DNA of 53,324 nt from a virus (lineage: Duplodnaviria > Caudoviricetes), in the IMG/VR virus record IMGVR_UViG_3300047562_004041, positions 1 through 53,324 of that record; one strand, given 5' to 3'. The notes under the pieces were generated by a model. It saw only the letters and a program-made list of their open reading frames with translations, did not search any database and was not told the DNA's origin. Position numbers and translations under genes: made by a program. Shown piece by piece: positions 1-45,914 of this stretch. Numbering within the stretch: position 1 is the first letter of the stretch; the number at the start of each line of letters is the position of its first letter.

Positions 1-283
1 CTTGAACACCTTGTGAACCTTGACTTCCTCTAGTGCCTTGTGTACCTTGTGCGCCTTGATTTCCAGTGCCACTTATACCTTGAACACCTTGTGAACCTTG
101 ACTTCCTCTAGTGCCTTGTGTACCTTGTGCGCCTTGATTTCCAGTGCCACTTATACCTTGAACACCTTGTGAACCTTGACTTCCTCTAGTGCCTTGTGTA
201 CCTTGTGCGCCTTGATTTCCAGTGCCACTTATACCTTGAACACCTTGTGAACCTTGACTTCCTCTAGTGCCTTGTGTACCTTG
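1..283. repeat. Exact 78-bp tandem repeat (~3.6 copies; 26 aa GISGTGNQGAQGTQGTRGSQGSQGVQ)
   Basis: Unit restarts at 1, 79, 157 and 235 with identical sequence. Confidence 0.95.
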
Positions 284-1993
284 AGTGCCTTGTCTTCCAT
301 CAGAGCCTTGAGTGCCTTGAGTGCCCTGTAGACCTTGTGAACCACCTTCACCACCTAATCCTTGGGTTCCTTGAGTGCCCTGTAGACCTTGTGTACCTTG
401 ACTTCCTAAAGTGCCTTGAGTACCTTGAGTGCCCTGTCTTCCTTCAGCACCTTGAGCGCCTTGGATGCCTTGGCTTCCTTGGGCTCCACCTGTACCACCA
501 AAACCTTGAGTTCCTTGGATGCCCTGGAGACCTTGAGTACCTTGAGTACCTTGTCTTCCTTCAGCACCTTGTAGACCTTGTGTGCCTTGTCTTCCTTCAG
601 TGCCTTGTGTGCCTTGAGTGCCTTGGATGCCTTGGCTTCCTTGAGCTCCACCTGAACCACCGAAACCTTGAGTTCCTTGGATACCCTGAAGACCTTGAGC
701 TCCTTGAGTTCCTTGAAGACCTTGAATTGATTCTCCCTGGAGACCTTGTGTACCTTGAAGACCTTGAGTGCCTTGTGTACCTTGCACATTTCCAGCAAGA
801 CCTTGAATTCCCTGAGTTCCTTGGGCTCCCTGAGTGCCCTGAAGACCCTGAGTGCCCTGAAGACCTTGTGTACCTTGGGTACCTTGAATTGACTCGCCCT
901 GGAGACCTTGTAGACCCTGTGTACCTTGTAAACCTTGAGTACCTTGGGTACCTTGAATTGATTCTCCCTGGAGACCTTGTGTGCCTTGAAGACCTTGAGT
1001 TCCTTGTGGTCCCTGTACATCTCCAGCAAGACCTTGAATTCCCTGAGTTCCTTGGGCTCCCTGAGTGCCCTGAAGACCCTGAGTGCCCTGAAGACCTTGT
1101 GTACCTTGTGGACCTTGTATAGATTCGCCTTGTAGACCCTGTGTACCTTGTAAACCTTGAGTGCCTTGTGTACCTTGAATTGATTCTCCCTGGAGACCTT
1201 GTGTACCCTGAGTACCTTGTAGACCTTGAGTACCTTGTGTACCTTGAATTGATTCGCCCTGGAGACCTTGAGTACCTTGAGTACCTTGTGATCCTTGTGC
1301 TCCTTCTTGTCCGCCAGTTCCCTGGGCTCCCTGGATGCCTTGAAGTCCCTGTAAACCTTGCGTTCCCTGTAAACCTTGCGTTCCCTGTGGACCTTGAGTG
1401 CCCTGTAGACCTTGTGAACCTCCCTGTCCACCAAGACCTTGTGTTCCTTGTACTCCTTGTGGTCCTCTTATTTTTCCTACATTTACCCACTGTTCTGATG
1501 GATTTATCCATACCCAAAATTCATCTGTGGCATCATCAATAATTCCATCGCCTGGCAATGTTGTATATGTGCCAATTGGCTCCACATTATTAATTACAAA
1601 ATCATTTAAAACTAAGTCTTCATTTCCTGGCCCAAAAGCTAAAACATCTGGCACCAAACCGATAATTTTTATAGTAGGACCAGAAGTTCCTTGTGTTCCC
1701 TGTGTTCCTTGAGTGCCTTGAGCACCTTGGGTTCCCTGAGTTCCTTGTACTACTAAATCTAAACTTGGAATCCAAAATCTTTGTCCAGTGTATCCTTGAA
1801 CCGCAGTTAATATATAATGTTCTTCAGTTAACTTTGATCCAGGTGGAAATGGATTTGTACCTATAGAAGATACTCCAACAAGAGGATCCCCAAGATCTGG
1901 TTCAGCTTGCTCCAAACCTAAAAATTGATATCGATCTGAAGTGATTCCAGATTGTGGGAATCTCTTTACTCTTCCTGAAGTATACTTAGTCAT
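2..1993 (-). CDS. Collagen-like (Gly-X-Y) tail fibre/virion protein; C-terminus runs off the window's left edge
   Basis: Translated by hand because it is absent from the ORF track (no stop in window). ATG at 1993 gives MTKYTSGRVKRFPQSGITSDRYQFLGLEQAEPDLGDP..., then a long G-[TSVAL]-Q triplet tract to position 2. Confidence 0.9.
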   Translation of the reverse strand, partial: MTKYTSGRVKRFPQSGITSDRYQFLGLEQAEPDLGDPLVGVSSIGTNPFPPGSKLTEEHYILTAVQGYTGQRFWIPSLDLVVQGTQGTQGAQGTQGTQGTQGTSGPTIKIIGLVPDVLAFGPGNEDLVLNDFVINNVEPIGTYTTLPGDGIIDDATDEFWVWINPSEQWVNVGKIRGPQGVQGTQGLGGQGGSQGLQGTQGPQGTQGLQGTQGLQGLQGIQGAQGTGGQEGAQGSQGTQGTQGLQGESIQGTQGTQGLQGTQGTQGLQGESIQGTQGTQGLQGTQGLQGESIQGPQGTQGLQGTQGLQGTQGAQGTQGIQGLAGDVQGPQGTQGLQGTQGLQGESIQGTQGTQGLQGTQGLQGLQGESIQGTQGTQGLQGTQGLQGTQGAQGTQGIQGLAGNVQGTQGTQGLQGTQGLQGESIQGLQGTQGAQGLQGIQGTQGFGGSGGAQGSQGIQGTQGTQGTEGRQGTQGLQGAEGRQGTQGTQGLQGIQGTQGFGGTGGAQGSQGIQGAQGAEGRQGTQGTQGTLGSQGTQGLQGTQGTQGLGGEGGSQGLQGTQGTQGSDGRQGTQGTQGTRGSQGSQGVQGISGTGNQGAQGTQGTRGSQGSQGVQGISGTGNQGAQGTQGTRGSQGSQGVQGISGTGNQGAQGTQGTRGSQGSQGVQ
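721..1290. repeat. Higher-order degenerate repeats in the collagen gene (~231-bp duplication)
   Basis: Block tccagcaagaccttgaattccc...gaagaccttgtgtaccttg at ~791-877 and ~1022-1108; cttgaattgattctccctggagacc recurs. Confidence 0.85.
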
Positions 1994-2369: not shown

Positions 2370-5300
2370 TTACTTACCTAATGCAATGATTAAAGGTGTT
2401 ATAGTATTTAACAAACTTTGATCGAATGATCTTCCTGTGATGGTTCCAGTCAATTGATTTACTGTTATATCATCTCCAATTTTAAAGTTACCCGCTTGAT
2501 TTGTACTCGTATAAATTACTTGTCCGCCTTCTATTTTTACCACTTCATTGTCTGGATTTGTAATACCACCCAAGGCAGGTTTTGCGGTATCAATATTTGT
2601 TCCGGCTCCAACCCACTCAAATGAGATTGTTGTTGCAATTTGCAAGCTCAATCTACTAAAGTATACTGTAGTTCCGGATCCAACTGTATTATTTAGAGTT
2701 TGAGTTAAAACGATAGTTGAGACGCCATTTACTGGCTCAGTTGCAGTTGCGATGTTATAATATGTTGGATATAATGTTGCTCTAGCTGTAGCCTGTATGC
2801 CAATTCCCCCATTAGGAGGAGCAATTTCCACAGTAGGAATTCCTTTATATTGACTTCCAGTACTGATCACATCAATAGAAGTGACTCTACCAAATTGATC
2901 TACATTTGCGGATGCTTCTGCGCGAATTCCGCTTGGTCCCTCTGGGAATCCAATTGTTACTCTAGGTGGTAATCCAGGAAGATATCCAAGTCCTGGTTCA
3001 TCGACTACTATAGTTTGAACTGTATTGTATAGCTCGCCGAAGTACAATGCCTGTCCATCATAAGGACGATTGGTCCCAACACCGGAAACAACTATAGTGT
3101 CAGTTTCAATTGGGGCAGTGTCAACTATTTTTCCAGTATAGCGATAAATTGATTTTGATGTTTTATCTCCAACACCATTTGAATATAATCCATAATTACC
3201 AAATGAAGCATTTGAGTTTGTAAGATCGCATTGTCCACCAGATCCTGTATATATCGCAATATCATCACAAATAGTAAAGATAGATACTAACTGAGCATAA
3301 GCACCATTAGTAATAGATACGCCGATTCCATTTTGATTATATTGAGTATATGAGTCAACACTCATAGTTCCAGTTACACCAATGTCAGTTTGATCTCCTG
3401 GCTCAGCGGCAAATCCATCAACTTTCATTCCAATACTATCACCAATAAAATTAGTGCAGTTTCTTACATATGGACCCTGGGTGATTGGTCCAACTCCTCT
3501 GGAAAATTCTGGAATTGCTACGCCACCGGAAACATAAGTATGTGGGATCGTTGATGGTCCAACATTAATAGTAAATGTGTCATTAGCAGTATTTGTTCTA
3601 TTAATTGCAATTCCAGTTGTAGGAATGTATGTATGTGGTATTGTAGATTCTCCTACATTAACAGTAAATGTAGATCCAACAGAAGTTAATACTCTAAATT
3701 TATATCCATTATTTCCTGTTGGATAAGTTAAGTTTGGTGGACTATCAGGACAGCTGAATAATAAATCTCTTAATTCCACCAAATCATTATATTCTAAGTT
3801 TATTCCAGGAGCGGTAATGGTAGCTATTCCACTTATATTATCATATTCTGCATCTGTTACATTAAATGGCTTATCAGTTACAATATCAATAACTCTAAAC
3901 TCAAATCCATTATTTCCTGTTGGGTAAATTGTAGTTGTCCCACTTCCACTTGGACAAGAAAATTCTAAATCTCTTATTTTAACAAGATCTCCAGTTTCTA
4001 TCGATAGACCTTCGGCTGTGATTGTAGTAATTCCAGTGGCATTATCATATGTTGCGGTTGTTATTGCTACAACTCTATCTAGAGCTATTCCACCACCAGC
4101 ATAAGTATGTGGTAATGTTGATGCACCAACATAGACTTCAAATGATTGATCATCGTTTATCTTATCAACAAAGAAATCATATCCATATCTACCAGATGGG
4201 AACATTTGAGTTGATATGCCACCACCAGAATTACAACTAAATGATAAATCTCTCAATTCTATAGATTCGCCCTTTATAGCCTTTAGTCCAGGAGAAATTA
4301 TAGTTAATTTACCAGATACTTCATCGTAAACTGCAGAAGTAATTCCAATTGTACTTGTAAATCCAATACCAGAATTTCCAGGGTATGTAGTTCTGATTCC
4401 AACTGTTGTAAATGCCTCGGATCCAAATCCAACAATGCTAGTAACAACACCAACGCAAGATCTCATTGCAGAAACAACATTAGCACAACCATTTATACCA
4501 TTATTGAATCCAGTCAATGGATCAACTTGCATTCCCAAATCTTTTATTTGTGTAATTTCATCTTGGAAACTAGTGTATTTTTGTATTGTTCCACCAGAAT
4601 CATAAGTATGTGGAAGAGTAGACTGTCCAACAATAACTTCAAAGTGGTCGTCATCTACGACTTTTAGTACATTAAATATGTAACCTAGAGAACCTGATGG
4701 ATAAGTCACAATACCTGGTCCAGATGGGCAAGTAAATTCTAATCCAACAATCTTTACTGCATCATCTAATTCCAATCCATGGTTAATTGCAGTAATCGAA
4801 GTAACTCCAGTTATATTGTCATATACTGCATTTGTAATTTCCGTGCCAAGACCAACTGGATATCCACCCCAAGTTACATTGTTTATCACTGCACGAGCGA
4901 CATTGAAAGAGTAATCTACAGTTGCAATAGTTTGTTCAACTTCTTCTGGATTTTTTAGTATTTGTGGAATTAAATTCCAATCAGAATCGTAATATGCCTT
5001 TCCTGCATCAACTGAACGAGAGTTTCCTCCTCTTGTAATATCATGTATAGCACACTTCCAAATGTCTTTGATATCGTCTGCGCAATCATTGCTTTCTAAT
5101 CTTACTCCAAATTTAATTGGTGGGAGTACACTAGTGCTTCCGGCTCCAATTGCTGATGTGACAATCCCTACAAGTTGAGAAATAGTAGTTCCAACTGCAA
5201 CGCAGCCACCAGGAACAGTTATTATAGAAGGATTGAAAGTTTGTGAGACCTCACTTTGATATGATGTAGGAGGTGCAACATTATCTATAACTGATTTTGC

Positions 5301-6341
5301 TATACCTGCAGCATAATCTAGTGTTGCTATTGTCGCAGCTGAAACTCCTACTCCTGTAATATGAACTAATGCGCCAGAATCACTAAAGTATGACAATGCC
5401 GCTCCAACAGATTTACGATTACTATTCGCTTTTAAGTCATAAGAAACAGATCGGAAAATATCTCTAATGTCATCTGCACAATCTTCGGTTGTTCCTGGTC
5501 CAGGAACTGTAAAGTTGAGTCCAGATGGGGAGGTTAAAAATCCAACTGCTTCTGCTGCAATATAATCAATATTTGAATCGATCAATCTTGCTGCATCTTG
5601 TTCTCTATGATTTCCTGCAAACCCACTAAAACCACTTGTCAAAAATCCAACAGATTCTCTTGCAATGTAATCAAGATTAATTCTGACCATTCTTGCGGCA
5701 TCAAAGAATCTATCTACCGCAACACCTTGAAGTGGTTGAAGTGCAACGACAGCAGCACCATCGGTCATTTTTGGGCCAATGAAACTCATGTCAGTAATAT
5801 GACAACCATTATTTACATGGAATAGGTCTAGGTATGGAAATTTTGGTGTGACAACGCAGTTTCTAAGTTCAGTTCCTTCTACAGAAACAGTTTTTTTCAA
5901 TACTATTGGATTTTCTTCAACATAAACTCCTGGGTATACTTTAATAGTATCTCCAAATACAGCTACATTGGCTGCTCCTTTAATAGTTCTTTTAGCGTGA
6001 CTTTCAGTCAACCCAGTATTATTGTCATCTCCACTTTGAGTAACAAAAATTGTTTTGCCTAGTGGCTTATATGCCTGTACTTTTACTTCACCTTTATTTC
6101 CAGGAGTTTGAGATGGAAATAAATCAATTCCAATACCAGGAACTAAGTTAGTTACAATACCAACTAAATTTACGCCATCTCCATAATAATCCAATGCAGT
6201 TACAGAACTTCCAACACTTAAGTTGGTACTGATTGCAACTTTATTTGCAAAAATGTTCAAGTCATTTTGACTTGTAATGTTCGGAACCTCTTGTCCGCCA
6301 ATCAGATTTATTCTTCTTGCACCAAAGCTTTTATCCGACAT
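2370..6341 (-). CDS. Large virion/tail protein (1323 aa): pectin-lyase-like beta-helix with nested helical and beta-repeat insertions
   Basis: GDDNNTG..AKRTIKGA / GDTIKVYPGVYVE beta-helix cap; internal repeats; late promoter upstream. Confidence 0.85.
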   Translation of the reverse strand: MSDKSFGARRINLIGGQEVPNITSQNDLNIFANKVAISTNLSVGSSVTALDYYGDGVNLVGIVTNLVPGIGIDLFPSQTPGNKGEVKVQAYKPLGKTIFVTQSGDDNNTGLTESHAKRTIKGAANVAVFGDTIKVYPGVYVEENPIVLKKTVSVEGTELRNCVVTPKFPYLDLFHVNNGCHITDMSFIGPKMTDGAAVVALQPLQGVAVDRFFDAARMVRINLDYIARESVGFLTSGFSGFAGNHREQDAARLIDSNIDYIAAEAVGFLTSPSGLNFTVPGPGTTEDCADDIRDIFRSVSYDLKANSNRKSVGAALSYFSDSGALVHITGVGVSAATIATLDYAAGIAKSVIDNVAPPTSYQSEVSQTFNPSIITVPGGCVAVGTTISQLVGIVTSAIGAGSTSVLPPIKFGVRLESNDCADDIKDIWKCAIHDITRGGNSRSVDAGKAYYDSDWNLIPQILKNPEEVEQTIATVDYSFNVARAVINNVTWGGYPVGLGTEITNAVYDNITGVTSITAINHGLELDDAVKIVGLEFTCPSGPGIVTYPSGSLGYIFNVLKVVDDDHFEVIVGQSTLPHTYDSGGTIQKYTSFQDEITQIKDLGMQVDPLTGFNNGINGCANVVSAMRSCVGVVTSIVGFGSEAFTTVGIRTTYPGNSGIGFTSTIGITSAVYDEVSGKLTIISPGLKAIKGESIELRDLSFSCNSGGGISTQMFPSGRYGYDFFVDKINDDQSFEVYVGASTLPHTYAGGGIALDRVVAITTATYDNATGITTITAEGLSIETGDLVKIRDLEFSCPSGSGTTTIYPTGNNGFEFRVIDIVTDKPFNVTDAEYDNISGIATITAPGINLEYNDLVELRDLLFSCPDSPPNLTYPTGNNGYKFRVLTSVGSTFTVNVGESTIPHTYIPTTGIAINRTNTANDTFTINVGPSTIPHTYVSGGVAIPEFSRGVGPITQGPYVRNCTNFIGDSIGMKVDGFAAEPGDQTDIGVTGTMSVDSYTQYNQNGIGVSITNGAYAQLVSIFTICDDIAIYTGSGGQCDLTNSNASFGNYGLYSNGVGDKTSKSIYRYTGKIVDTAPIETDTIVVSGVGTNRPYDGQALYFGELYNTVQTIVVDEPGLGYLPGLPPRVTIGFPEGPSGIRAEASANVDQFGRVTSIDVISTGSQYKGIPTVEIAPPNGGIGIQATARATLYPTYYNIATATEPVNGVSTIVLTQTLNNTVGSGTTVYFSRLSLQIATTISFEWVGAGTNIDTAKPALGGITNPDNEVVKIEGGQVIYTSTNQAGNFKIGDDITVNQLTGTITGRSFDQSLLNTITPLIIALGK

Positions 6342-6355: not shown

Positions 6356-6362
6356 TATTTAT
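6356..6362 (-). promoter_or_regulatory. T4-type late promoter ATAAATA
   Basis: Motif 15 nt upstream of ATG at 6341. Confidence 0.6.
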
Positions 6363-8347
6363 TCTATTGAGATTCCGAATAATGAAAGTCCATCACCCTC
6401 TATAGTTAATTTAGTATATATGTCATCTACAGCTGGACCTGGTGGACCAGGAGGAGGTGGAGGTGGAGTTGGACCAGGAGGAGGTGGAGGTGGAACAAAA
6501 AAAGTCGAATATGGGTTGTAAATTATTCTTTTTTCAGCTCCTCTCATATTATATCTACCGGACCAATATGTTAAAGTATTTGGATCTGGATATTGGTCTA
6601 AATATTCATTGGTTAAAGTCACAGAACCTGATGTAAATAGCCAATCTTTAACTTGACTGGATGTCGAAGTTGGATTTAATTGTAAGTGTATTGCAACAAT
6701 TCCAGCCACAACTGGTGCAGCTGCACTTGTCCCGTTAAATAAACAATCACGAAATAATCCGTTGTCAGCTCTAACATATGGATCTAATCCTATACATCCT
6801 GCAGCTAAAGTTTCATCTGCAGGTGCCCAAACATCTACTCCTGGTCCGTTGTTAGAATAAAAAGCTTTTCTTTCTGCTCCATCAGATAGGCTAAAATCAT
6901 CCATCGCACCAACACATATTACAGGATGAAAATCTGCCACGGAATCATATCCCATTCCAGATGGTGTCAACCAATTTCTATGTCCACTAGGAATTGTTCC
7001 AGCTGGAAATTCTGGATTCGGGTCAAATGGAAATATAATATCAGTAAAATAATCTAACAAATGTGGATCATCAAGACCAATTCCCAATCTTTGATTGCTA
7101 TTTCCAGCTGATGCAACAAAAATTGCACCAGAATCCATGAGCTCACTTCCAGCCAAATCTGTACTAGCACTACGAGAACTACTGACATAGTTCCTATATT
7201 GTTCAGGTCTTGGAGTTAAAGATTCTTTAGCATATAATACAGGTTTAGTTGGATCTGCCGCTGGAGAGTTACCAATAAATGTTCCTACTTGCCCTTCAAA
7301 GCTATAAGAAACTACTGTAGTACCATCAAATCCACCAAGATATACCCAACTTCCACTAATAATAGTTGGATTTTTTATTCCAGTTGCTGGATTTATTGGT
7401 TTATATAGATGAAATACTTTCATCAAATCAAAAGTAAGTTCTATAGGAACACTAAATTTTCTATTTCTTGATACACAATAAATGCTCCAAATATTGGCAT
7501 TAAATGCAGTACCAAAATTTTTACCCGCAGAAAGAGATGCACATGAAGTCCCATGTGAATCTGTCAATCCATTTGAACCATCCAAATTTGTACCCAAAGT
7601 ATCATTTTCATTGTATGCAGCTGGTATTGTAAAGGTACCAATCGAAGAAAACTGTGGGGATCTAAGAGATGAGTTTTGCCACCAATTTTTTGCAGCAAGT
7701 TCCGTAATTCCTATTCTTCCATCTGGTTTTATGGTTGTCAATCCATTTATATTAAAGTATACTGGATCAATATAATATGGTCCATCTAAAATTACATCTC
7801 TAACTCTAGATTTTCCAGTGGAATCTAAAAATTCTGGATGGTATTGTAAAACACCAGAATCTTGTATTATAATGTCAGTGTTTGATCCATCAATTGTATA
7901 ATCTACATTTCCTAAAACAGGAGGTATGAATTCTCCAGTTTGTGTCCAAAAATCAGAACTTTTTTGCAGTACCGTTCTTTTGATTGCCCAATTAGTTCTG
8001 TTAATTTCTTCTGGTGTTGGGGTTGGAGAAATAGATGTATTTAAATCTCTGTATATTTTTACATCAGTTGGCCATCTTTTTGTACATTGAACTGGAGTGG
8101 GATACACTTCTGGGTGATGTATTGGGGACAATTCTATCCATTTTACATTAGGATGATTTAATAATTCTTGAACTTCCTCCTCGGACAATAAGAATGTACC
8201 TCTAGTTTGACTATGTTCTTTTTCATCAGAACATTCGACACATCTATTTGGAACATGTTCACACTCCGATTCATGGCATAATTGATTGTGAATCTCTTGC
8301 CAATATTCAGGTTGAGTTACACTTAAAGTATAATGCTTGTATTCCAT
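6359..8347 (-). CDS. Subtilisin-like S8 serine protease
   Basis: Catalytic motifs IIIQDSG (Asp), HGTSCAS (His), ASAGN (oxyanion Asn), GTSAAAP (Ser); Pro-rich C-terminal linker. Confidence 0.92.
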   Translation of the reverse strand: MEYKHYTLSVTQPEYWQEIHNQLCHESECEHVPNRCVECSDEKEHSQTRGTFLLSEEEVQELLNHPNVKWIELSPIHHPEVYPTPVQCTKRWPTDVKIYRDLNTSISPTPTPEEINRTNWAIKRTVLQKSSDFWTQTGEFIPPVLGNVDYTIDGSNTDIIIQDSGVLQYHPEFLDSTGKSRVRDVILDGPYYIDPVYFNINGLTTIKPDGRIGITELAAKNWWQNSSLRSPQFSSIGTFTIPAAYNENDTLGTNLDGSNGLTDSHGTSCASLSAGKNFGTAFNANIWSIYCVSRNRKFSVPIELTFDLMKVFHLYKPINPATGIKNPTIISGSWVYLGGFDGTTVVSYSFEGQVGTFIGNSPAADPTKPVLYAKESLTPRPEQYRNYVSSSRSASTDLAGSELMDSGAIFVASAGNSNQRLGIGLDDPHLLDYFTDIIFPFDPNPEFPAGTIPSGHRNWLTPSGMGYDSVADFHPVICVGAMDDFSLSDGAERKAFYSNNGPGVDVWAPADETLAAGCIGLDPYVRADNGLFRDCLFNGTSAAAPVVAGIVAIHLQLNPTSTSSQVKDWLFTSGSVTLTNEYLDQYPDPNTLTYWSGRYNMRGAEKRIIYNPYSTFFVPPPPPPGPTPPPPPPGPPGPAVDDIYTKLTIEGDGLSLFGISIE

Positions 8348-17715: not shown

Positions 17716-17789
17716 AGCCCCCCATCGGACTCGAACCGATGGCCGCCGCTTTACAAAAGCGGTGCTCTATCCAACTGAGCTAGAGAGGC
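17716..17789 (-). tRNA. trnT: tRNA-Thr(UGU)
   Basis: GCCTCTC acceptor, TAGCTCAGTTGGATAGAGC D-arm, CCGCT-TTTGTAA-AGCGG anticodon arm, GGTTCGAGTCC T-arm; no encoded CCA. Confidence 0.95.
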
Positions 17790-18061: not shown

Positions 18062-18105
18062 AGGATTGTTCCTATTACTTTTGTTTATTTAGAGGTTAAA
18101 CCTGA

Positions 18106-18179
18106 TAGGCGTGGTCGGATTCGAACCGACACTTTATTGATTTTAAGTCAATTTTCTCTGCCTGTTGGAATACACGCCC
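18106..18179 (-). tRNA. trnL: tRNA-Leu(UAA), short variable loop
   Basis: GGGCGTG/CACGCCT acceptor, ATTGA-CTTAAAA-TCAAT anticodon arm, GTCGGTTCGAATCCGAC T-arm, discriminator A. Confidence 0.9.
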
Positions 18180-18187
18180 ATAAAAAC

Positions 18188-28848: not shown

Positions 28849-31800
28849 TTACGCAGTTTGAATTTTATTTACTACCAAAAGATGCGTATTCACAATCTGA
28901 TCTTCGGATGACTGATCATATTGTTGAATCATGTCCATTGTATTTTTTATTGGTAAAGGAGTGAATTGTGCTTGTGCAACTAAAGAAGATGGAATATTAT
29001 TTTGAATAGAAGCATTTCCACCTGCATGAAGATTTATCCACTTTCCACCTGTAAATTTATAGTAAACACCATTTGCTGCTCGTTTTATTTCTCCTTCTTT
29101 TCCTCTACCCAATCCAAAGGTTGGAATTTGTCTAAGTTGCGTATTATTTCTATCGGTCACATCTATTTCTTGATCAAATCCAAATGGACCAAGTTTATAA
29201 AACTTTCCATTTTTAAATATGACACCTTGATTTTTTATTGGTTGGTTTGGTTGTGGTGGATTTTGGGCAGGTGGTTGTGGTGGTGGATTTTGGGCAGGTG
29301 GTTGTGGTGGAGTTTGCGTTACAACTCCTCTAAATTCGAAGTGAACATCATCACCTGGAATTGCAGCATAATACCAACCATAATTTGGTCCATTAGTAAC
29401 AAACCAGTTCCAACCTTTTGTTGAAGGTCTAATATCAAGTGCTCTACCTTCACCATGCTGAGAAGTTCCTGGTGCACCTACAACTGAATATATTCCTTGT
29501 AATGCTCTTTGATGCTCTAAACTTCTGTATGCAGAGGTAAGTATCAATGTAATTCCTTGTTTACTTGCATCTGATTTTGCTTTAAGAAATTGTCTGGCAG
29601 CATCGTGTCTTAGGTATGCCCCATTACCATACCAATCGTTATAATCTGGAGGATCAGCAAGTGTACCTACTCTAGTAAGTTGTGATGGTTTTAGTCTTCC
29701 ATTTTCTCCAGTCAGAGGAAGTCCACCCCTACCAGTTTGAGTTACAGTTCCTCTAGTTTGAGATGAAACTTGAGCTGGAGATAGTTTACCTGCCTTAAAT
29801 GCAGCAATCTGTGCCCCACCAGGTTCAAATCCAAAAATATGCCCATGTCTAGTAACTTCAGTACTATCATCTAATTGATTATATAATCTATTCTCATGGG
29901 TCGTAGCTCTGAATGCATCTCTTGGTCCAACAAAAGTTCTAGCTGATCTTTGTCTATTTGTATCTAATAAAGCAGCTGCCACTGATTCTAATCCAGCTTG
30001 TGTTTTTCCATTGGATGTAGCGAATCTAATAGCGTCTTCCTTGGTTATAATTTTTGACCAAGCTGAGACACCACCATATCTACTTACTGGCGTAAATTGT
30101 GCTGGCGATAATATAGCAGCTCTCATACTCCCATTTGTCTTCCAAGGATCACCAGGAGCAGATACTCTATTATAAATTACTTGTGCCACATCAGCTGCAC
30201 CTTGAGGATCAGAATTTTCAAATAGTGCTCCAGTTGCAAGTAACCAAAAATTTGGGCTATTACTACTTACAATTATATTTCCAGGACCACCACCAGGTGG
30301 TGTACTTACTCCAGGTCCATCGCCTTTAAGTCCCATCTCTTTTCTAAGACTTTGAAATATCTGATTAGTTCTATTGTCAAGAGCATTTTTAAATGAACGA
30401 GATATTGCATCACCTAATTGCTGCCCAATTGTTGGTCCATTTTTATTAATTGTTCTTTGAACTGGAACTACACCACCTTGTGCTGCTGTAAAAATTGATC
30501 TACCAATTTGATTAACATCTTTTGCTGATTGTGCTGCGATTGCATTGTCAATCAATGCAGCAAAATTATTTTTAATTTCTTGATTCAATAGGGGATCTGG
30601 CTTTTGACCCAAAGGTAAATTTGCAGTCGCCATCATGATTCCACCAAAAAGTGGATCACGGTTTTTATTCATAATTTCTGATATAGTTTTTAATGCTCTT
30701 AGTGGATTTTTCTTTCCTGATTTTTTTGGTGATGGAAATATTTTTTTAATTTGCTTCAGCCCACCAATATTTTTTCCAGGCTGGGGTGGTTGGCCTTTTG
30801 GTTTTTGTAAAGTAGATTTTCTTCTCGAAATAGTTCTTTTGATTGTTCTATTTGGTGATCTATTGCCCCTAGTAATTGTACCTCCTGATGCTCTTTTTTG
30901 TATTTTTTCACCTTGACCTTGCATGGATGTTGCGGCATCAAATAATGATCTACCAACAATATCTCCAAGAATTCCACCCCAAATTGGACCACCAAAGGGA
31001 ATCAAAGCAGGAAAACTTCCAAGTGCTGCTCCAACGGCACCACCAACAGCACCAGCAGCAGCTCTATCTGGTCTTTCCTTAAATATCAATGTACTAATTA
31101 AAAAGTCCGCTATTGGACCTATAATTGGAATTTTGCCTAATATTTTTGTGCCAGCTTTTCCAAATAATTTTAATGATGTACGCTGCTGTATCTTTCCTAA
31201 TCCTCTTGCTCCAATTCTACCTGAAGTTCTTCCTTTTCCAGCCAATCCAGCAGCAGGAATAGCTCTTGGTGAAAATCTTTCTCTGACTGCTTCTAATGCT
31301 TTAGCTGGAGTTAATCCTTTATTAATTTTGTCTTGATATAGTCGTGCTGCATCAAATCCATATTTTTTTGTAACTGCCTCTTGTGCGCGAGTCTGACTAA
31401 AATATTGACTTAATCTTGTTGACCCACCAGGTCCACCTACACCAGATCTAGGGGAGATTCTTGTGGGTAACTTTTTACCTCCACCACCTCCAACTGCACC
31501 AGAACCAGCAATTGCCAATCCAACAATAATTGCGGTATTTAAAAATTTGTTTAGAGCAGATGAAAGGTCATCAAATTGCTTTTCAAATTTTTCTCCACCG
31601 ACCTGTTTTGCTAATGATCTTACTTTATCATATTGTTCATAACCAAGATCAATGGCATCTACAAAATTTTTAAATACAGATCCAACAAAATTTTCTGTAA
31701 ATTTTATAAAAGGATCTATAAACTTTAATGTGCTTAATATTTTTGGGAGAAACTTCACTAGTTTAGTGAATGCAAATCCCATAAAAGTATAGAGAATAAA

Positions 31801-32139
31801 ATTACGAATTGCATCTAGGAATCCAGTTTTAGGTAATGCTCCCTGTAGATATTTTAATGGATTTACGAGTTTTGGTGTTTCGGATTGCTTTTCCTGTTGT
31901 TGTCTTGTCTGCGTTATTGCTCGTCTTCTTTGTTGCTCTTTTTGGTTGGACAAAAGGGAAGAATTAAATTTAACCAAAGTTTCAATTTTCTTTAAACTTT
32001 GGTGAATTGATGTCAAAATACTCAAAGGTGCATTTCCACCTCCACCTCCACCTCCACCTGGTCCAACTCCACCTCCACCAGGTCCTCTTCTTGACCCTGG
32101 TATGATAGGTGTAGTTGGAGTTACATTATTTTGCGCCAT
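28849..32139 (-). CDS. Tape-measure/hub-like protein with cell-wall hydrolase and M15 (VanY-like) peptidase domains
   Basis: E...ADVAQVIYNR...QF; SAYRS..HQ...SQHGEGRALD...DDVHFE. Confidence 0.8.
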   Translation of the reverse strand: MAQNNVTPTTPIIPGSRRGPGGGGVGPGGGGGGGGNAPLSILTSIHQSLKKIETLVKFNSSLLSNQKEQQRRRAITQTRQQQEKQSETPKLVNPLKYLQGALPKTGFLDAIRNFILYTFMGFAFTKLVKFLPKILSTLKFIDPFIKFTENFVGSVFKNFVDAIDLGYEQYDKVRSLAKQVGGEKFEKQFDDLSSALNKFLNTAIIVGLAIAGSGAVGGGGGKKLPTRISPRSGVGGPGGSTRLSQYFSQTRAQEAVTKKYGFDAARLYQDKINKGLTPAKALEAVRERFSPRAIPAAGLAGKGRTSGRIGARGLGKIQQRTSLKLFGKAGTKILGKIPIIGPIADFLISTLIFKERPDRAAAGAVGGAVGAALGSFPALIPFGGPIWGGILGDIVGRSLFDAATSMQGQGEKIQKRASGGTITRGNRSPNRTIKRTISRRKSTLQKPKGQPPQPGKNIGGLKQIKKIFPSPKKSGKKNPLRALKTISEIMNKNRDPLFGGIMMATANLPLGQKPDPLLNQEIKNNFAALIDNAIAAQSAKDVNQIGRSIFTAAQGGVVPVQRTINKNGPTIGQQLGDAISRSFKNALDNRTNQIFQSLRKEMGLKGDGPGVSTPPGGGPGNIIVSSNSPNFWLLATGALFENSDPQGAADVAQVIYNRVSAPGDPWKTNGSMRAAILSPAQFTPVSRYGGVSAWSKIITKEDAIRFATSNGKTQAGLESVAAALLDTNRQRSARTFVGPRDAFRATTHENRLYNQLDDSTEVTRHGHIFGFEPGGAQIAAFKAGKLSPAQVSSQTRGTVTQTGRGGLPLTGENGRLKPSQLTRVGTLADPPDYNDWYGNGAYLRHDAARQFLKAKSDASKQGITLILTSAYRSLEHQRALQGIYSVVGAPGTSQHGEGRALDIRPSTKGWNWFVTNGPNYGWYYAAIPGDDVHFEFRGVVTQTPPQPPAQNPPPQPPAQNPPQPNQPIKNQGVIFKNGKFYKLGPFGFDQEIDVTDRNNTQLRQIPTFGLGRGKEGEIKRAANGVYYKFTGGKWINLHAGGNASIQNNIPSSLVAQAQFTPLPIKNTMDMIQQYDQSSEDQIVNTHLLVVNKIQTA
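29250..29311. repeat. 24-bp repeat (PPQPPAQN) linker
   Basis: ggttgtggtgg...ttttgggcaggt duplicated. Confidence 0.85.
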
Positions 32140-36481: not shown

Positions 36482-36515
36482 TATAAATATTTTTAATGTC
36501 TATTGATTATTTATA
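36482..36515. promoter_or_regulatory. Pair of opposed late promoters TATAAATA (+36482-36489; -36508-36515)
   Basis: Exact consensus on both strands between divergent genes. Confidence 0.8.
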
Positions 36516-36517
36516 GA

Positions 36518-36964
36518 GTGCCTAAGAATTATATACAAGGATTTTACTCTCCAATAAATCCAAAAAAATATTCTGGAAATCCAGCTCAAATTGTATATCG
36601 TTCCTCTTATGAATTGAGAGCATTTAAATGGTGTGATTTATCAGAAAGTATTATTTCTTGGGGATCGGAAGAAGGTTGGGTGCCATATAGGAATCCAATT
36701 ACTGGAAAAGTGCATCGTTATTTTCCAGACTTATTCATAAAAATAAAAGAATCAAATGGAGAAATAAAAAAATATCTCATAGAAATAAAGCCAAAACGAC
36801 AAACTATTCCACCAAACCCAACACCAAAAAAGAAAACAAAAACTTGGTTGAACGAAATGAAAACATACCAAATAAATCAAGCTAAATGGGAAGCAGCAGA
36901 AAAATTTTGCCATGAAAACGGAATAGTATTCAAAATAATCACCGAAAGGGAATTGGGAATCTAA
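36518..36964 (+). CDS. gp4: Head completion nuclease gp4
   Basis: P.NP.KY.G....IVYRSS.E; RYFPD; IEIKP; NQAKWEAA; ITE.EL; GTG start inferred. Confidence 0.92.
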   Translation: MPKNYIQGFYSPINPKKYSGNPAQIVYRSSYELRAFKWCDLSESIISWGSEEGWVPYRNPITGKVHRYFPDLFIKIKESNGEIKKYLIEIKPKRQTIPPNPTPKKKTKTWLNEMKTYQINQAKWEAAEKFCHENGIVFKIITERELGI

Positions 36965-41029: not shown

Positions 41030-41058
41030 ATCATAGCACAGAATCAGGATTCGTGCAA
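41030..41058 (-). promoter_or_regulatory. Sigma70-type promoter for gp32 (TTGCAC-17-TATGAT, extended -10 TG)
   Basis: Spacer counted as 17 nt. Confidence 0.6.
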
Positions 41059-41376
41059 GTCCATTTTGACCGTCTCAATAACTTTTTCGAGTTGAGAAAA
41101 AACATTGTTTACATTTTTATCTACATCCACTCCCATCATTTTCACGGATTCATTTAACCTTTCTTTCATCTCAATAGCACTTGGGTCATCAGAAAGACTC
41201 AATCTAGCGTATAATACTTTTTGTTTTTCTAATAAATCTTCTAAAACTTTTATGTAATCAACTTTTTGTTGTCTTGTCATTGAATAATATGATAAAACAT
41301 TCGAAGATAATTGCTCTTGTAAAAGTTTTATTTCATTCAATTCATTTTTTACTATTTCGGATCCAAAAAAACTCAC
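41044..41376 (-). CDS. Conserved cyanophage hypothetical protein (110 aa)
   Basis: MSFF.SEIV..E...LLEKQ..LY.RLSLSDDP.A. Confidence 0.8.
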   Translation of the reverse strand: MSFFGSEIVKNELNEIKLLQEQLSSNVLSYYSMTRQQKVDYIKVLEDLLEKQKVLYARLSLSDDPSAIEMKERLNESVKMMGVDVDKNVNNVFSQLEKVIETVKMDLHES

Positions 41377-41969
41377 AGCAATACCTTCCTTACAATGTCT
41401 TTGTATTTATTCAAATCTATCTTTAAAAAAGGAGAATATTTTTTTATTTTTTTAGAAGTCAGTTCCCAAACTGGATCCAACAATTTTAAATCAAATTTTT
41501 CTCTATATTTGAGCATTTGATCTAATATTACCATACTTTCTAGCATTATATTTCCAGCCAAATATTCTTTCAATATTTTTGGATGCTTATTGCCTTCAAT
41601 TTTTAAAAAATCTAAAAAATTCTTTCCCTCAAATACTTTTTTCAAATCTTGCTCAAAAAGATAACTCAATGACTGTGTTTTCTTTTGCCATTCTAAGTAG
41701 TTATCATTTCCATTTTTGATGATATCGCCAATCCACAAAGAAGATGGGTCAGATGAAGAAACAAAATTCGAAACAAAAAACTCTACAATTTCCTCGTCTT
41801 TGTTTTTTCTCGATAACTTTTCGAAAAAAATACGATCTTTTCTTTTGTGGAAAGATTCAATAGATGCTTTTATTTTACCATTATATCTAATGAAATCATA
41901 GCTTTCATTTGTAAAATGTTGTTTTAATGCAAGATAAGTCTTGTAAGTATCATGTGGCGTCACTTTCAT
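41373..41969 (-). CDS. gp59: Helicase loader gp59
   Basis: Y..YLALK.HFT...YD...YNGK; F.KRKDR.FFEKLSR; start MKVTP. Confidence 0.9.
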   Translation of the reverse strand: MKVTPHDTYKTYLALKQHFTNESYDFIRYNGKIKASIESFHKRKDRIFFEKLSRKNKDEEIVEFFVSNFVSSSDPSSLWIGDIIKNGNDNYLEWQKKTQSLSYLFEQDLKKVFEGKNFLDFLKIEGNKHPKILKEYLAGNIMLESMVILDQMLKYREKFDLKLLDPVWELTSKKIKKYSPFLKIDLNKYKDIVRKVLL

Positions 41970-42549
41970 CTTTAGAATAATAGTTTTCAATTGAATAAGA
42001 TTCATCTTCAGTGAAAAAAGCAGATATTGTATATCGTATTCCTTTTTCTACTTTCTTCACACCATGATTAAACTTTAAATTTCCAGGGTGTACAACCAAC
42101 ATTCCTGGTCTGGGTTGAACTTGAATATTTAAATTAGAATAATATAGTTGGCCCCCTTCAAAATTGTCGTTTAAATATAAAACTCCACCATATGTTCTAT
42201 GTGGAGATCTGTTGGGGGTTATGCCATCTTGTTCTATATTGTCTGCATGTGGAGGTAATTCATTTCCTTCTTTCCACCTAACAAACTGAGGAGGTTCTAT
42301 AAAAATTGTTTCACAAGGAGAATTCATGCGAATAAACCTCAACATACCCTGAGAAATCTGATATAATATATTTTTTATTTTTTTATCCTTAATAGCATTA
42401 AAGTATATACATTTCCCACTCCAATATTCAACATCAGAGTTGTGTTGATCATGTAAATTGTCGTTTGTTTTTGCCCAATTTAATATATAATCAATTGCTT
42501 CTTGAGTTAAAAAATTTTCAGCAACTAAAGGAAAAATCTCATCAGTCAT
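41950..42549 (-). CDS. 2OG-Fe(II) oxygenase (prolyl-4-hydroxylase-like)
   Basis: HAD...LYLND.FEGG...HGV..V..G.RY. Confidence 0.92.
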   Translation of the reverse strand: MTDEIFPLVAENFLTQEAIDYILNWAKTNDNLHDQHNSDVEYWSGKCIYFNAIKDKKIKNILYQISQGMLRFIRMNSPCETIFIEPPQFVRWKEGNELPPHADNIEQDGITPNRSPHRTYGGVLYLNDNFEGGQLYYSNLNIQVQPRPGMLVVHPGNLKFNHGVKKVEKGIRYTISAFFTEDESYSIENYYSKDESDAT

Positions 42550-42809
42550 AAAGGTAATTTAGCTCTAGATGTCTTTTTCAAAAAGTTTAATTGAACTGCG
42601 TCCCACTTTAGTTTTTCCTTTAATGGCTTTGAAATCAGCTTGGGAACAGTCTCTATGTCAATGTTATTCTTATCGCAATACTCAACGATAGCATTAATAT
42701 AATTATACTCTGGATTCTTTTGGACCAAAGTTTCAATTTCTTGTGCAAATTTATCTTGACATAGAAATTTCTTTTGCATTTCTTGTTTTAATTCTTCAGA
42801 CGGATTCAT
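42546..42809 (-). CDS. gp33: Late transcription coactivator gp33
   Basis: F..EIE...YI.AIV.YC....ID.E...KLISKPLKEKL..DA..LNFL. Confidence 0.9.
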   Translation of the reverse strand: MNPSEELKQEMQKKFLCQDKFAQEIETLVQKNPEYNYINAIVEYCDKNNIDIETVPKLISKPLKEKLKWDAVQLNFLKKTSRAKLPL

Positions 42810-43521
42810 ATTCTTTTAACTTATCTTGGGTGAATTTTTTTACATATTTTACAAGAAGTTTGATGTATTTTTCAATATCAGTTTCAATATATGTCACTAC
42901 TTCTCCATTTTCACATGCCATAATAATTACAAGTTGCTCTGCTGATTTTCCTGTCAATTCCTTTAACATGAAACAATATGCCGCAGCCTGAACAAAATAA
43001 TTTTCAATCCATTCTTTTGGTTTTGGCTTCTCAGAAGATTTATAATCAATAATACTCAGTTTTCCATCATATTCAGCAATTGTATCGACAGTTCCTGCAA
43101 TTTTAAAGTAATTGCTATACATTGAACTTTCAATTGCAATAATATTGTCTATTTTATCTAATTCAGATTTTGCAACATCAAAAAGAAATTTGGGAAGAGG
43201 AGTAGATTTTGGCAACTCATCATTTAACAAGTAGTTTTCGATGAGAGAATGCATTGCAGTTCCACGATTAGTAGAAGCTTTTGTAATTCGATTTGCCTCT
43301 TCTTCCCCTACTCTTTTTCTCCAGCTAGCAAATTTTTCTTTATTATAATGTGAAGTGACTGAAGTTACTGAAACAAATCTTTTTAATTCTGTTTCACCTT
43401 CAGTCTCAATTTTATAAAACCTAACTCCATTGATAGTTTCTCTTTCAAGTTTTGGCAGATTAATATCAATGTGTGTGAATGTTTTTTTGCTTTTTGTTTG
43501 CCAAGGACTGCTCATTTCCAT
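42796..43521 (-). CDS. PD-(D/E)XK exonuclease
   Basis: SVTSV; RGTAMH; AGTVD.I; IIDYKSS; Q.AAY. Start moved from 43536 because the promoter -10 lies at 43539-43544. Confidence 0.88.
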   Translation of the reverse strand: MEMSSPWQTKSKKTFTHIDINLPKLERETINGVRFYKIETEGETELKRFVSVTSVTSHYNKEKFASWRKRVGEEEANRITKASTNRGTAMHSLIENYLLNDELPKSTPLPKFLFDVAKSELDKIDNIIAIESSMYSNYFKIAGTVDTIAEYDGKLSIIDYKSSEKPKPKEWIENYFVQAAAYCFMLKELTGKSAEQLVIIMACENGEVVTYIETDIEKYIKLLVKYVKKFTQDKLKEYESV

Positions 43522-43538
43522 TCCAAAAACTTTCATCC

Positions 43539-43567
43539 ATTATAGCAGAAACTCGACCTGATGTCAA
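43539..43567 (-). promoter_or_regulatory. Perfect sigma70 promoter TTGACA-17-TATAAT
   Basis: Exact consensus with extended -10 TG. Confidence 0.85.
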
Positions 43568-44325
43568 AATCCCAAAGAATGTTTTGCGATCAAATATTCT
43601 TTGACTAGACCAGATCTTACAACATCTTCCACATTAAATTCTATAGTCTCGAATGATGGCATAACATTCAAGATTTTCATGAAATCATGAATTCCATTTT
43701 TTTCGTTTTGTCTAACTAGATCACTTTGTGATGCATCACCACTAAACATTATTTTACAGTTTTCGCCAACTCTTGTAATAATAGAATCATGTTCATGTCC
43801 ATTCATGTTCTGAAACTCATCTACAATAATAATACAGTTATCAAATGTAGTTCCTCTTAAGAAACTCGAAGACCAAAATTTAATTGTTTCTTGGGATTTC
43901 AAATTACCATAAAGCATTTCAAAATCTTCATCTGATGGAAGTTGGAACATATATTTCACCATATTTTTATATGGAATCTCAAATAATGCGCTCTTATCTT
44001 CGTGTCCACCAGGCAAAAATCCGATCTCACGAGTTTGAACTAGTGATCGAATGATATAAATTTTTTCATATGGAGTTTTTTCATTTAAAACTTCCTGTAA
44101 AGCTTTATATAAAAGAACAAATGTTTTTCCAGTTCCAGCAGCACCATAAGCTAAAATATGTTTCCCATCATCATAATAATCAAATAATTTTTTCTGATTA
44201 TCTGTGAGTGGTTCTATATCAAGTAACAACTCAGAATTAATTGGTTTCCTTCTTTTCATCTGCTTTGTTGTCATACCAACGCCAATTGGTTGATATTCAT
44301 CAGATGTCTTTCTTCTTCTTGCCAT
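43564..44325 (-). CDS. phoH: PhoH-family ATPase
   Basis: GAAGTGKT; IGFLPG; FLRGTTF; DEFQN; TRVG; GD..QSD. Confidence 0.95.
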   Translation of the reverse strand: MARRRKTSDEYQPIGVGMTTKQMKRRKPINSELLLDIEPLTDNQKKLFDYYDDGKHILAYGAAGTGKTFVLLYKALQEVLNEKTPYEKIYIIRSLVQTREIGFLPGGHEDKSALFEIPYKNMVKYMFQLPSDEDFEMLYGNLKSQETIKFWSSSFLRGTTFDNCIIIVDEFQNMNGHEHDSIITRVGENCKIMFSGDASQSDLVRQNEKNGIHDFMKILNVMPSFETIEFNVEDVVRSGLVKEYLIAKHSLGF

Positions 44326-44326
44326 A

Positions 44327-44578
44327 TCAATATTGCATTTTTGATTTACTTCCACCCGATTTGTCAGCTTTTTTCAAAACTTCTCCCCAACCAGGATGCT
44401 TGTTTACTAAACGATTTTTCCAATCTCCAACTTCTCCAGAACCTGGACAGGTTGATGGATCAGACCAATCTCTTTCCCAATCTGAATTATCTAATTTCCA
44501 TTTATCCCAATCATGAATACTCAGAGTAATTTCTTTTTGTTCACCAGTTTTTTTATTAATTATTGGATATGTAGGCAA
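44327..44578 (-). CDS. Conserved hypothetical protein upstream of phoH (MPTYPIINKKTGE...)
   Basis: GGAG SD then TTG start. Confidence 0.75.
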   Translation of the reverse strand: MPTYPIINKKTGEQKEITLSIHDWDKWKLDNSDWERDWSDPSTCPGSGEVGDWKNRLVNKHPGWGEVLKKADKSGGSKSKMQY

Positions 44579-44608
44579 AATCAAAACTCCTTATAATATC
44601 TTTTATAT

Positions 44609-44767
44609 TTATTCTATACAAATAGAAGGTGCATCATCGCATTCAATACAGTCAATACATTCATCAATATCAGGATATTTCCTTAATAATTCTTGAAACT
44701 CTTCCTCCGTAAGAAGGACTTTAAATACATGACCCGTTAAATGATCTTTGACACACCAACTTTTCAT
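44609..44767 (-). CDS. 52-aa Cys-containing protein (MKSWCVKDHLTG...ECIDCIECDDAPSICIE)
   Basis: Hand-translated; fills the gap after thyX. Confidence 0.7.
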   Translation of the reverse strand: MKSWCVKDHLTGHVFKVLLTEEEFQELLRKYPDIDECIDCIECDDAPSICIE

Positions 44768-44773
44768 TGTTCT

Positions 44774-45526
44774 TTATGGAGATAGTCTTGCTCTATGTAG
44801 ACGCTTTTCTTCATAATATTTCCAAACATTTGGTGCCCACTTTTGTAGGTGGGGAACAAACTGTTCGCAAAGTGCCTGGATTTCCAATTGGGCATCCATC
44901 TTTGCTCGAAGATCCATAATATGAAGAACGGATCGTAGGTTAAAAGAAACTACAAAGTTTTGACGAATTGCTTGTGCTAAGTAATCTCTAATGTGTTCTT
45001 CGCACATTCCTTTTTCATATTTTAAAGCATAACGCTTACAACCTTCGAGAATAAAATTCAATTCATCTTGATAATCATCTTCGGTCCAATCATATTTTTT
45101 ACCATAACGATTGGTATAAAACCCAGGAGGACGAACATAAAAAACATCTTCTGGTTTTAGTTCACCACTTGCTACTTTAATGACTCTTTTTCCAGTATAG
45201 CGTTGTGATTGAACATCGAAGCTAACTCCAACTCTATGAGTTCTTGCTTGCATTGCAACATTGTGGACATACCCAGAAACAGAAAATGTAATTGAAGGGT
45301 GTTCCAGGGGTCCCCAGTGTCCCTTCTCGTTACTTAAAAGACGCTCTACCACCCAAACACCACATTCAGATGGACTAGGAATTTTTTGATTGTGAATCGG
45401 AGTTTCGGAGTAGTCGCATTTTCCCGCTTGATAAATGACTTGCTCTGGAAGTGAGTAGCATTGAAGCATTACTACTTCAAGATTTTTATCAAGTTCTAAC
45501 AGGTCTTTTGCTTTAATTGGTTTCAT
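44774..45526 (-). CDS. thyX: Flavin-dependent thymidylate synthase
   Basis: GHWGPLEH; RTHR..SFDVQSQRY; NLRS..H..DLR....AQLEI. Confidence 0.95.
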   Translation of the reverse strand: MKPIKAKDLLELDKNLEVVMLQCYSLPEQVIYQAGKCDYSETPIHNQKIPSPSECGVWVVERLLSNEKGHWGPLEHPSITFSVSGYVHNVAMQARTHRVGVSFDVQSQRYTGKRVIKVASGELKPEDVFYVRPPGFYTNRYGKKYDWTEDDYQDELNFILEGCKRYALKYEKGMCEEHIRDYLAQAIRQNFVVSFNLRSVLHIMDLRAKMDAQLEIQALCEQFVPHLQKWAPNVWKYYEEKRLHRARLSP

Positions 45527-45714
45527 TCGTTTGTATTCTCCCAGGTATCTTTTTCTTTTTTACGAAGTTTTTTCAACTCTTTGATCATATCTTTAATTTC
45601 TTGATATGCTGTCTCTGGGCTGATTTTATCACTAATTTCAAGTCCAACAACATATTGAACTTTATCACCGAAGCGAGCAAGTGCTCGCTCGAAAGCAGTC
45701 AATTCTTCATACAT
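45523..45714 (-). CDS. Hypothetical protein (63 aa)
   Basis: Overlap-coupled ORF. Confidence 0.75.
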   Translation of the reverse strand: MYEELTAFERALARFGDKVQYVVGLEISDKISPETAYQEIKDMIKELKKLRKKEKDTWENTNE

Positions 45715-45890: not shown

Positions 45891-45914
45891 GATAAACGAA
45901 TCATGTCCATTCAC

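Follow-up and report, generated by a model that had tools for sequence, protein, structure and literature searches.

Two nested phycobiliprotein-like domains in a predicted tail-fibre protein of a T4-like phage

Phycobiliproteins are the antenna proteins of cyanobacteria, red algae and cryptophytes, and the question raised by the locus described here is whether a phage has taken up their fold as part of its virion and whether that fold would hold a bile pigment there. The locus lies in a stretch of viral DNA of 53,324 nucleotides (IMG/VR record IMGVR_UViG_3300047562_004041, positions 1 to 53,324; hereafter the window), the record being a 53-kb fragment with an estimated completeness of 25%. 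At issue is the product of one open reading frame (ORF), P0001, which a first-pass annotation made from the letters alone had described as a virion protein into which a globin-like phycobiliprotein fold was recruited. That description of the fold is supported by family profiles, by the predicted structure and by the conservation of a cysteine and an aspartate. P0001 contains two domains that are very probably remote, genuine homologues of phycobiliproteins, with the beta subunits as their nearest relatives.

The phycobiliprotein fold, complete with the chromophore Cys and Asp, is unexpected as a building block of a phage fibre. No publication on phycobiliprotein-like domains in phage virions was found in a search that left subscription journals and closed supplements outside its reach.

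Two related units, one enclosing the other

Four peptides had been quoted in the first-pass annotation as the parts of two paralogous units, and all four were located by script in the translation of the ORF: DAARMVRINLDYIARESV at amino acids (aa) 214-231, DAARLIDSNIDYIAAEAV at aa 249-266, EDCADDIRDIFRSVSYDLKANSN at aa 286-308 and NDCADDIKDIWKCAIHDITRGGN at aa 418-440. The span given there for the units (4420-5712) corresponds to aa 210-641 of P0001, and the two Cys codons singled out (5478-5480 and 5082-5084) are confirmed as those of C288 and C420. The paralogy is significant by phmmer within P0001, where a query of aa 245-405 matches aa 417-490 (E 5.4e-10) and aa 213-237 (E 2.5e-4). The pairing of the peptides thus stands as far as paralogy is concerned, but their arrangement has to be corrected. 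From the N-terminus the segments run H1', H1, CADD, CADD', and therefore the second unit surrounds the first, the two being nested and not in tandem.

A hidden Markov model (HMM) of the unit family finds four pieces in the window, all of them in P0001. These are aa 211-242 (HMM positions 2-33), aa 245-405 (the whole unit, 9.1e-47), aa 414-520 (HMM positions 33-135, 6e-26) and aa 600-642 (HMM positions 108-150). The outer domain is accordingly interrupted twice: the inner domain in its entirety follows helix B and precedes helix E, and a beta-barrel parts helix G from helix H (Table 1).

Table 1. Position of the fibre ORF, its domain pieces and its putative pigment-site residues in the window
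Feature	Position	Strand	Description
Fibre ORF (P0001)	2370..6341	-	1323 aa; predicted tail-fibre-type virion protein carrying both globin-like domains
Unit 2 piece a	5616..5711	-	aa 211-242; helices A'/B' of the outer domain; model helices 2-17, 19-31
Unit 1	5127..5609	-	aa 245-405; phycobiliprotein-like globin domain, complete; interrupts unit 2 after helix B' and before helix E'
C288	5478..5480	-	unit 1; aligned to Cys84 (alpha) / Cys82 (beta) through profiles A2 and A3
D290-D291	5469..5474	-	unit 1; Asp at the Arg86 position, then the Asp87 equivalent
C380	5202..5204	-	unit 1, just before helix H; candidate equivalent of beta-Cys153
Unit 2 piece b	4872..5102	-	aa 414-490; helices E', F', G'; model helices 214-233, 237-244, 262-282; carries C420 (5082-5084) and D422-D423 (5073-5078)
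Beta-barrel	4572..4862	-	aa 494-590; interrupts unit 2 after helix G' and before helix H'; model strands 290-386
Unit 2 piece c	4404..4544	-	aa 600-646; loop and helix H'; model helix 416-442; carries C619 (4485-4487) and C629 (4455-4457)

Kinship with phycobiliproteins and conservation of the pigment site

The kinship was assessed with two profiles. A2 comprises 32 diverse units, namely the window's unit and one fragment from each of 31 proteins, the fragments having been picked from 37 units of less than 45% identity, while A3 comprises 11 units with a second Cys, the window's included. Searched against the PDB sequences, A2 gave 129 matches at E <= 10 with CpcA at the top (9.7e-6), and 59 of the best 60 of these 129 are chains of phycobiliproteins or of the phycobilisome, the remaining one being a 'bacterial fluorescent protein alpha'. 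The alignments place the K-C-x-R-D of the unit over the K-C-A-R-D of CpcA (Cys84, Arg86, Asp87). With A3, R-phycoerythrin beta was matched at 1.7e-5 (unit positions 2-139 on chain positions 36-175), and 58 of its best 60 matches in the PDB are phycobiliproteins. The profiles were also compared by hhalign with CpcA and CpcB as encoded on an Acaryochloris plasmid. A2 aligned with CpcA (prob 93.5, E 2.3e-7) and A3 with CpcB (prob 78.9, E 1.6e-5), the latter also in global mode (prob 90.8, E 1.5e-7, unit 1-152 on CpcB 35-172). In the reverse direction, the Pfam phycobiliprotein family PF00502 is matched at E <= 1 by 12 of the 32 single units (best 8.2e-6), and its cut-off of 22.2 bits is exceeded by two giant homologues, P0130 and P0131 (29.7 and 35.8 bits).

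The first-pass annotation had relied on a by-eye alignment with an alpha-phycocyanin string. The string itself agrees with the CpcA chain, KCARDIGYYLRMVTYCL, and in register with it 8 of 16 residues are identical to CADDIRDIFRSVSYDL; the pairwise likeness is not significant. The resemblance to phycobiliproteins reaches significance only by way of profiles.

The fold was predicted with AF2. The module (aa 205-650, 446 residues), modelled with 47 homologues, reached pLDDT 88.5 and pTM 0.83, and unit 1 alone, modelled with A2, pLDDT 93.6 and pTM 0.90, showing six helices. In a VIA-align structure search of 48,161 chains, ranks 1-8 for unit 1 were all phycobiliproteins or the bilin domain of ApcE (Z 12.4-15.4). 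Phycoerythrin beta stood at the top (Z 15.4, root-mean-square deviation (rmsd) 2.7 A over 145 residues, chain 33-184), and allophycocyanin (Z 14.7) and the ApcE bilin domain (PDB 4xxi; Z 14.3, rmsd 2.1 A over 116 residues) were also among them. Phycobiliproteins were again best when the 446-residue model was searched. Foldseek agrees for unit 1, with phycobiliprotein chains at TMq 0.51-0.70 and E from 3e-3; among the 33 matches listed, 32 belong to phycobiliproteins and the other is a 'bacterial fluorescent protein'. For the multidomain model of 446 residues its matches are weak (phycoerythrin beta, E 0.02, TMt 0.57). A globin-like predicted structure, which the first-pass annotation had named as a check, was thus found, with phycobiliproteins best in both aligners. 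The fold by itself is 'globin-like'; the term 'phycobiliprotein' comes from the sequence profiles.

The pigment site was examined in a family sample of 887 units of at least 120 aa, reduced to 347 at less than 50% identity from 95 proteins. Among these 347 non-redundant units the Cys is present in 337, Arg at +2 in 303 and Asp at +3 in 342, and further positions are kept as well (Asp at +14 in 331, Tyr74 in 344, Asn at +20 in 277). In 196 of 299 units with Arg at +2 (Arg-type) this Cys is the sole Cys. An acidic residue at +2 (acid-type) is found in 25 of the 347, a minority type to which the window's units belong. Columns of A2 that are invariant or above 90% are N13, C44, D47, G62, G63 and Y74. 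In phycobiliproteins Asp87 contacts the pyrrole nitrogens.

In unit 2 of P0001 it is C420 that lies in the aligned column of the bilin-attachment Cys, with D422 at the Arg86 site and D423 at the Asp87 site. Over 47 orthologous modules C288, D291 and C380 are each kept in 47, C420 in 45 and D423 in 46, and position +5 of unit 2 is basic (K or R) in 44. Retention of the Cys and Asp in homologues, which had been suggested as a check on the first reading, is therefore seen in both units.

The unit is widespread. Of 5955 candidates from a search with the region aa 205-500, 1070 proteins passed E <= 0.001, and the best 120 of the 1070 matches show 66-93% identity over the module and lengths of 912 to 2260 aa. 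An exhaustive search of 1.84 billion representatives matched 325 proteins at E <= 0.001. Many are giants of 2,000-7,000 aa in which as many as 29 stretches were matched, and giant proteins of this size hold up to 29-34 copies of the unit. A jackhmmer run over 267 proteins delimited 1493 units in 266 of them, with the consensus ...K-C-K-R-D-V-G-L-I-V-D-A-V-A-Y-D-L-L-Y-G-G-N.... Searched by tblastn against 50,697 phage records, the module matched 347, every one (347/347) named Synechococcus, Cyanophage or Prochlorococcus, and a canonical unit matched 296, of which 295 bear such cyanophage names. In BFVD the unit fold is present in tail or structural proteins of S-PM2, S-ShM2, S-WAM2 and S-SCSM1 (TMq 0.7-0.88). 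The named clusters of the ESM Atlas gave no usable match.

As for the protein that carries the units, P0001 matches the PHROG profiles phrog_3442 (1.9e-295) and phrog_17885 'tail fiber protein' (2.8e-287), and the ORFs flanking it encode gp9/10-like, baseplate hub, tail tube and tail-lysin proteins as well as further fibre genes, as in a T4-like phage. By profile and gene position it is a predicted member of a cyanophage tail-fibre or structural family, and its placing as a putative virion protein follows homology and annotation. Whole P0001 matched 300 phage records by tblastn (Synechococcus 251, Cyanophage 28, Prochlorococcus 12, Marine 9), all at less than 60% identity, and megablast of the fibre gene against the phage records gave no match. 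The gp32 homologue of the window is nearest to those of Synechococcus phages B23 and B3 (58.7%), and the nearest cultured relatives of this T4-like phage infect Synechococcus.

A possible bilin on the fibre, weighed against other explanations

It is proposed that the fibre domains would act as rigid beads of the tail fibre and would take up a host-made linear tetrapyrrole (bilin) while the fibre assembles in the infected cell. The bilin would be thioether-bound to C288 and C420, giving a pigment-bearing fibre, and the bound pigment would either merely stabilise the fold or give the fibre a response to light, which might for instance act in light-dependent adsorption. Bilin binding and a link to light-dependent adsorption had both been raised, as possibilities, in the first-pass annotation. 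This account of phycobiliprotein-derived beads carrying a host bilin is offered tentatively as a whole, the balance leaning a little against it. For the C-x-R-D majority of the unit family, bilin binding is given about an even chance; the C-x-D-D units of the window may bind one too, which is rather doubtful. Bilin binding would be the most economical account of the family-wide conservation, and it is less likely for the acid-type variant. The furthest-reaching form is that covalent bilins at C288 and C420, perhaps also at C380 and C619 in the manner of beta subunits with their bilins at Cys82 and Cys153, would make a pigmented virion. The pigment would be the photoreceptor of cyanomyovirus light-dependent adsorption and the natural substrate that explains the bilin-synthesis and T-type lyase genes of many cyanophages. 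In that form the proposal is unlikely.

One report puts the light-dependent adsorption of cyanomyoviruses down to light-sensitive receptors and/or tail fibres and describes the adsorption as independent of host photosynthesis (PMC6628666). The benefit of bilin genes in phages of hosts without standard phycobilisomes is called unclear in another (PMC2984593). Two questions are made testable by the fibre domains, that of a light sensor in cyanomyovirus adsorption and that of the purpose of the bilin genes in such phages, and whether a virus particle carries a bile pigment likewise becomes testable. If the bilin proposal is true, a covalent bilin on the fibre would turn the virion into a pigmented, light-absorbing object. 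The window contributes a subtype resembling beta subunits, in which two Cys go with an acidic residue in place of Arg86, as well as an architecture of one domain within another and a lineage in which the complete relative carries no bilin genes.

A number of observations weigh against the bilin proposal. The first group concerns the sequence. Pfam gave no family at E <= 1 for P0001, for aa 205-650 or for unit 1 alone, PF00502 had no match in the six frames of the record, and phmmer against the PDB returned no match for P0001 and none at E <= 10 for unit 1. There is no X-Y hairpin, the alignments beginning at phycobiliprotein chain residue 33-38, and the helices of unit 2 directly precede unit 1. 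The Arg86 equivalent is Asp in both units (D290 and D422), a caveat already raised in the first-pass annotation that holds across the orthologues, position 290 being D or E in 46 of 47. Arg86 provides a propionate contact in phycobiliproteins, and its loss removes that contact. The window's domains are not strict phycobiliproteins, because their own sequence lies below the Pfam cut-off and they lack both the X-Y hairpin and Arg86. The structure search draws no sharp line either, since rank 8 in VIA (Z 12.4) is followed by rank 9 at Z 12.1 and sensor globins lie at Z 9-12.1, and helical models can score Z of about 14 in VIA through arrangement alone. The putative equivalence of C380 with beta-Cys153 comes from a forced global alignment, and HMMER against R-phycoerythrin beta uses another, later Cys.

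A further group concerns the pigment supply and the host. Pigment genes were sought in the five longest records out of 16 related viral loci, one complete and four partial. None of the five records yielded CpeT, CpeS, bilin reductase, heme oxygenase or psbA, a result which shows absence only for the complete record and not for the four partial ones. The complete relative (G001; 249,820 bp, terminal repeats, 100% complete) has a module 80% identical to that of the window, with the units in a single 1712-aa frame. As this relative has no bilin or lyase gene, the phage would have to draw its pigment from the host and to attach it by host lyases or by autocatalysis. A psbA gene (Photo_RC), present in nearly all known isolates of cyanomyoviruses, was not found in the complete genome of 249,820 bp. 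Such a lack is unusual for a T4-like cyanophage and therefore leaves the host of the lineage uncertain; a cyanobacterial host of the window's lineage is not proven.

The strongest of the other explanations is that the beads are free of pigment. Here the fold would have been captured from a phycobiliprotein gene and would now serve solely as a rigid fibre spacer, the conserved Cys, Asp, Asp at +14, Asn at +20 and Tyr having a role in folding or in packing between chains. Up to 29-34 copies in giants of 2,000-7,000 aa are what other fibre beads show, and the strong conservation of residues outside the triad (Asp at +14, Tyr74 and Asn at +20, as counted above) is specific to this family. The missing Arg86 of the window's units, the complete relative free of bilin and lyase genes, and a literature in which no report of pigmented phage particles was found all sit well with this explanation. 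However, it gives no reason why the exact triad is kept (337, 303 and 342 of 347) while the rest of the unit falls to 20-30% identity, and it leaves the lone unpaired Cys of most Arg-type units (196/299) unexplained. The confinement of the module, among cultured phages, to cyanophage-named records (347/347) would fit dependence on a bilin-making host, but an origin by gene capture fits it too. Pigment-free structural beads are a serious possibility, held at somewhat less than an even chance.

The second cysteine leads to another alternative, a disulfide-locked variant in which C288 and C380, and C420 and either C619 or C629, would pair in oxic water after release, with no bilin, a possibility already raised in the first-pass annotation. 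Each unit has a candidate second Cys (C380, C619) which, on alignment, would stand where beta subunits have Cys153. Over 819 units spanning both sites, an acid at +2 goes with a Cys before helix H, present in 142 of 155 acid-type units versus 147 of 629 Arg-type units, and the same holds for non-redundant units (10/16 versus 38/250). Cys occurs in at least 3% of units at columns 44, 54, 56, 67 and 136 only. The coupling of acid and second Cys would suit a disulfide, and so would the conservation of C288, C380, C420, C619 and C629 among orthologues (C619 in 46 and C629 in 43 of the 46 with a residue at the site). Against it, the global hhalign alignment of A3 with CpcB sets C380 on the Cys of GDCS, with the preceding D-P also aligned, at low confidence there, and a weak HMMER stretch against phycocyanin beta again places C380 on beta-Cys153. 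When superposed on phycoerythrin beta, the model of unit 1 matches it through helix H as far as the end of the chain. In phycobiliproteins and globins the starts of helices E and H lie at opposite ends of helix B, and the two bilin sites of a beta subunit are separated by tens of angstroms, a distance that a disulfide does not span. If C288 and C380 are homologous to these two sites, they would be expected to lie far apart in the same way. The second Cys is also present in 38 Arg-type units, and C629 remains Cys in orthologues where position 430 is not, so a 430-629 pair is not obligatory. The disulfide variant is considered improbable.

Binding of another cofactor, either heme as in sensor globins or a metal held by the Cys and Asp, is very unlikely. 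Globin-coupled sensor domains do come close behind in the fold search (Z 9-12), but the profiles match phycobiliproteins and not heme globins. Heme was set aside as no His is conserved in A2. Least credible of all is chance or convergence towards an unrelated helical bundle with a C-x-x-D motif, for although the window's unit alone matches nothing and helical folds easily score high, two unit profiles, Pfam, hhalign against CpcA and CpcB, and two structure aligners agree, with the same residues in register over 60-140 positions across methods.

Genomic setting and comparison with known systems

The beta-barrel inserted in the outer domain has its best VIA matches in the phi92 endosialidase (Z 9.7) and the first catalytic cysteine half-domain of E1 (Z 9.6), and it recurs in P0001 at aa 666-752, 759-828 and 828-906. 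The four barrels of about 90 aa (window positions 3624-4346 and 4572-4862, minus strand) share the motifs F-[ST]-C-P-S-G and P-H-T-Y, each with one conserved Cys. A further tail fiber profile, phrog_9851, matches P0001 aa 98-1071 as two stretches. By its sequence, P0001 at aa 90-210 and about 930-1070 looks like a single beta-helix-type domain, split by an insertion of about 720 aa which consists of the globin units and the barrels.

Immediately upstream of the fibre gene lies a subtilase gene (6359-8347, minus strand; Peptidase_S8, 1e-16) whose product ends in a C-terminal Pro/Gly-rich tail, PPPPPPGPTPPPPPPGPPGP, and which may be a virion-associated or fibre-maturation protease. A collagen-repeat tail-fibre protein is encoded at 2-1993 (minus strand) and runs past the end of the window, the stretch having a G+C content of 47% versus about 35% elsewhere in the window. 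A 1096-aa protein of the baseplate region (28849-32139, minus strand) has a VanY-type peptidase domain (1e-07) and is likely a tail-associated cell-wall hydrolase. Host-like genes at 41044-47804 (minus strand) code for DUF1825, 2OG-Fe(II) oxygenase, PhoH, ThyX, S-adenosylmethionine decarboxylase and DUF6433, a set typical of cyanomyoviruses. Two likely mobile or homing elements were identified, a TnsA-like endonuclease gene between tail-tube and baseplate genes (36503-36964, plus strand) and an HNH endonuclease gene (52644-53012, minus strand). Genes for tRNA-Thr (TGT; 17716-17789, minus strand) and tRNA-Leu (TAA; 18104-18180, minus strand) lie between an 1800-aa fibre gene and the next ORF.

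Among known systems, the globin-coupled sensor and stressosome (RsbR) globins resemble the window's domains in general fold (Z 9-12) but differ in that no profile similarity was seen to the units, which have no conserved His. The C-x-R-D repeats of giant structural proteins of cyanophages and uncultured phages (phrog_3442, phrog_5342, phrog_18802; S-PM2 Q5GQW5) belong to the same unit family and are annotated in their records as structural, tail or tail-fibre proteins. They are mostly tandem, with a single Cys and Arg at +2 (303/347), whereas the window has two nested units with an acid at +2 and a second Cys.

The phycobiliprotein beta subunits (CpcB, CpeB; PF00502) share with the window's domains the globin-like helices A, B, E, F', G and H, the Cys at 82/84 and the Asp at 85/87. 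The two-Cys subtype is also alike in a P-G-G-N-like stretch before helix E and in a D-P...C before helix H, which is aligned with Cys153 at low confidence. The window's domains differ from beta subunits in lacking the X-Y hairpin, in having Asp and not Arg at 84/86, in being embedded in a 1323-aa virion protein with one of them split by two inserted domains, and in a sequence that falls below the Pfam cut-off, their pigment binding being putative. A parallel in architecture is the bilin domain of ApcE (4xxi), also a phycobiliprotein-type domain within a large multidomain protein and the tightest structural match (rmsd 2.1 A). ApcE needs no lyase to attach its bilin, and a loop is inserted in it after helix B and before helix E, at the same place where unit 1 enters unit 2. 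ApcE is, however, a cellular phycobilisome anchor that keeps Arg-Asp, whereas in the window a whole globin domain is inserted at that place and the protein is a predicted phage fibre.

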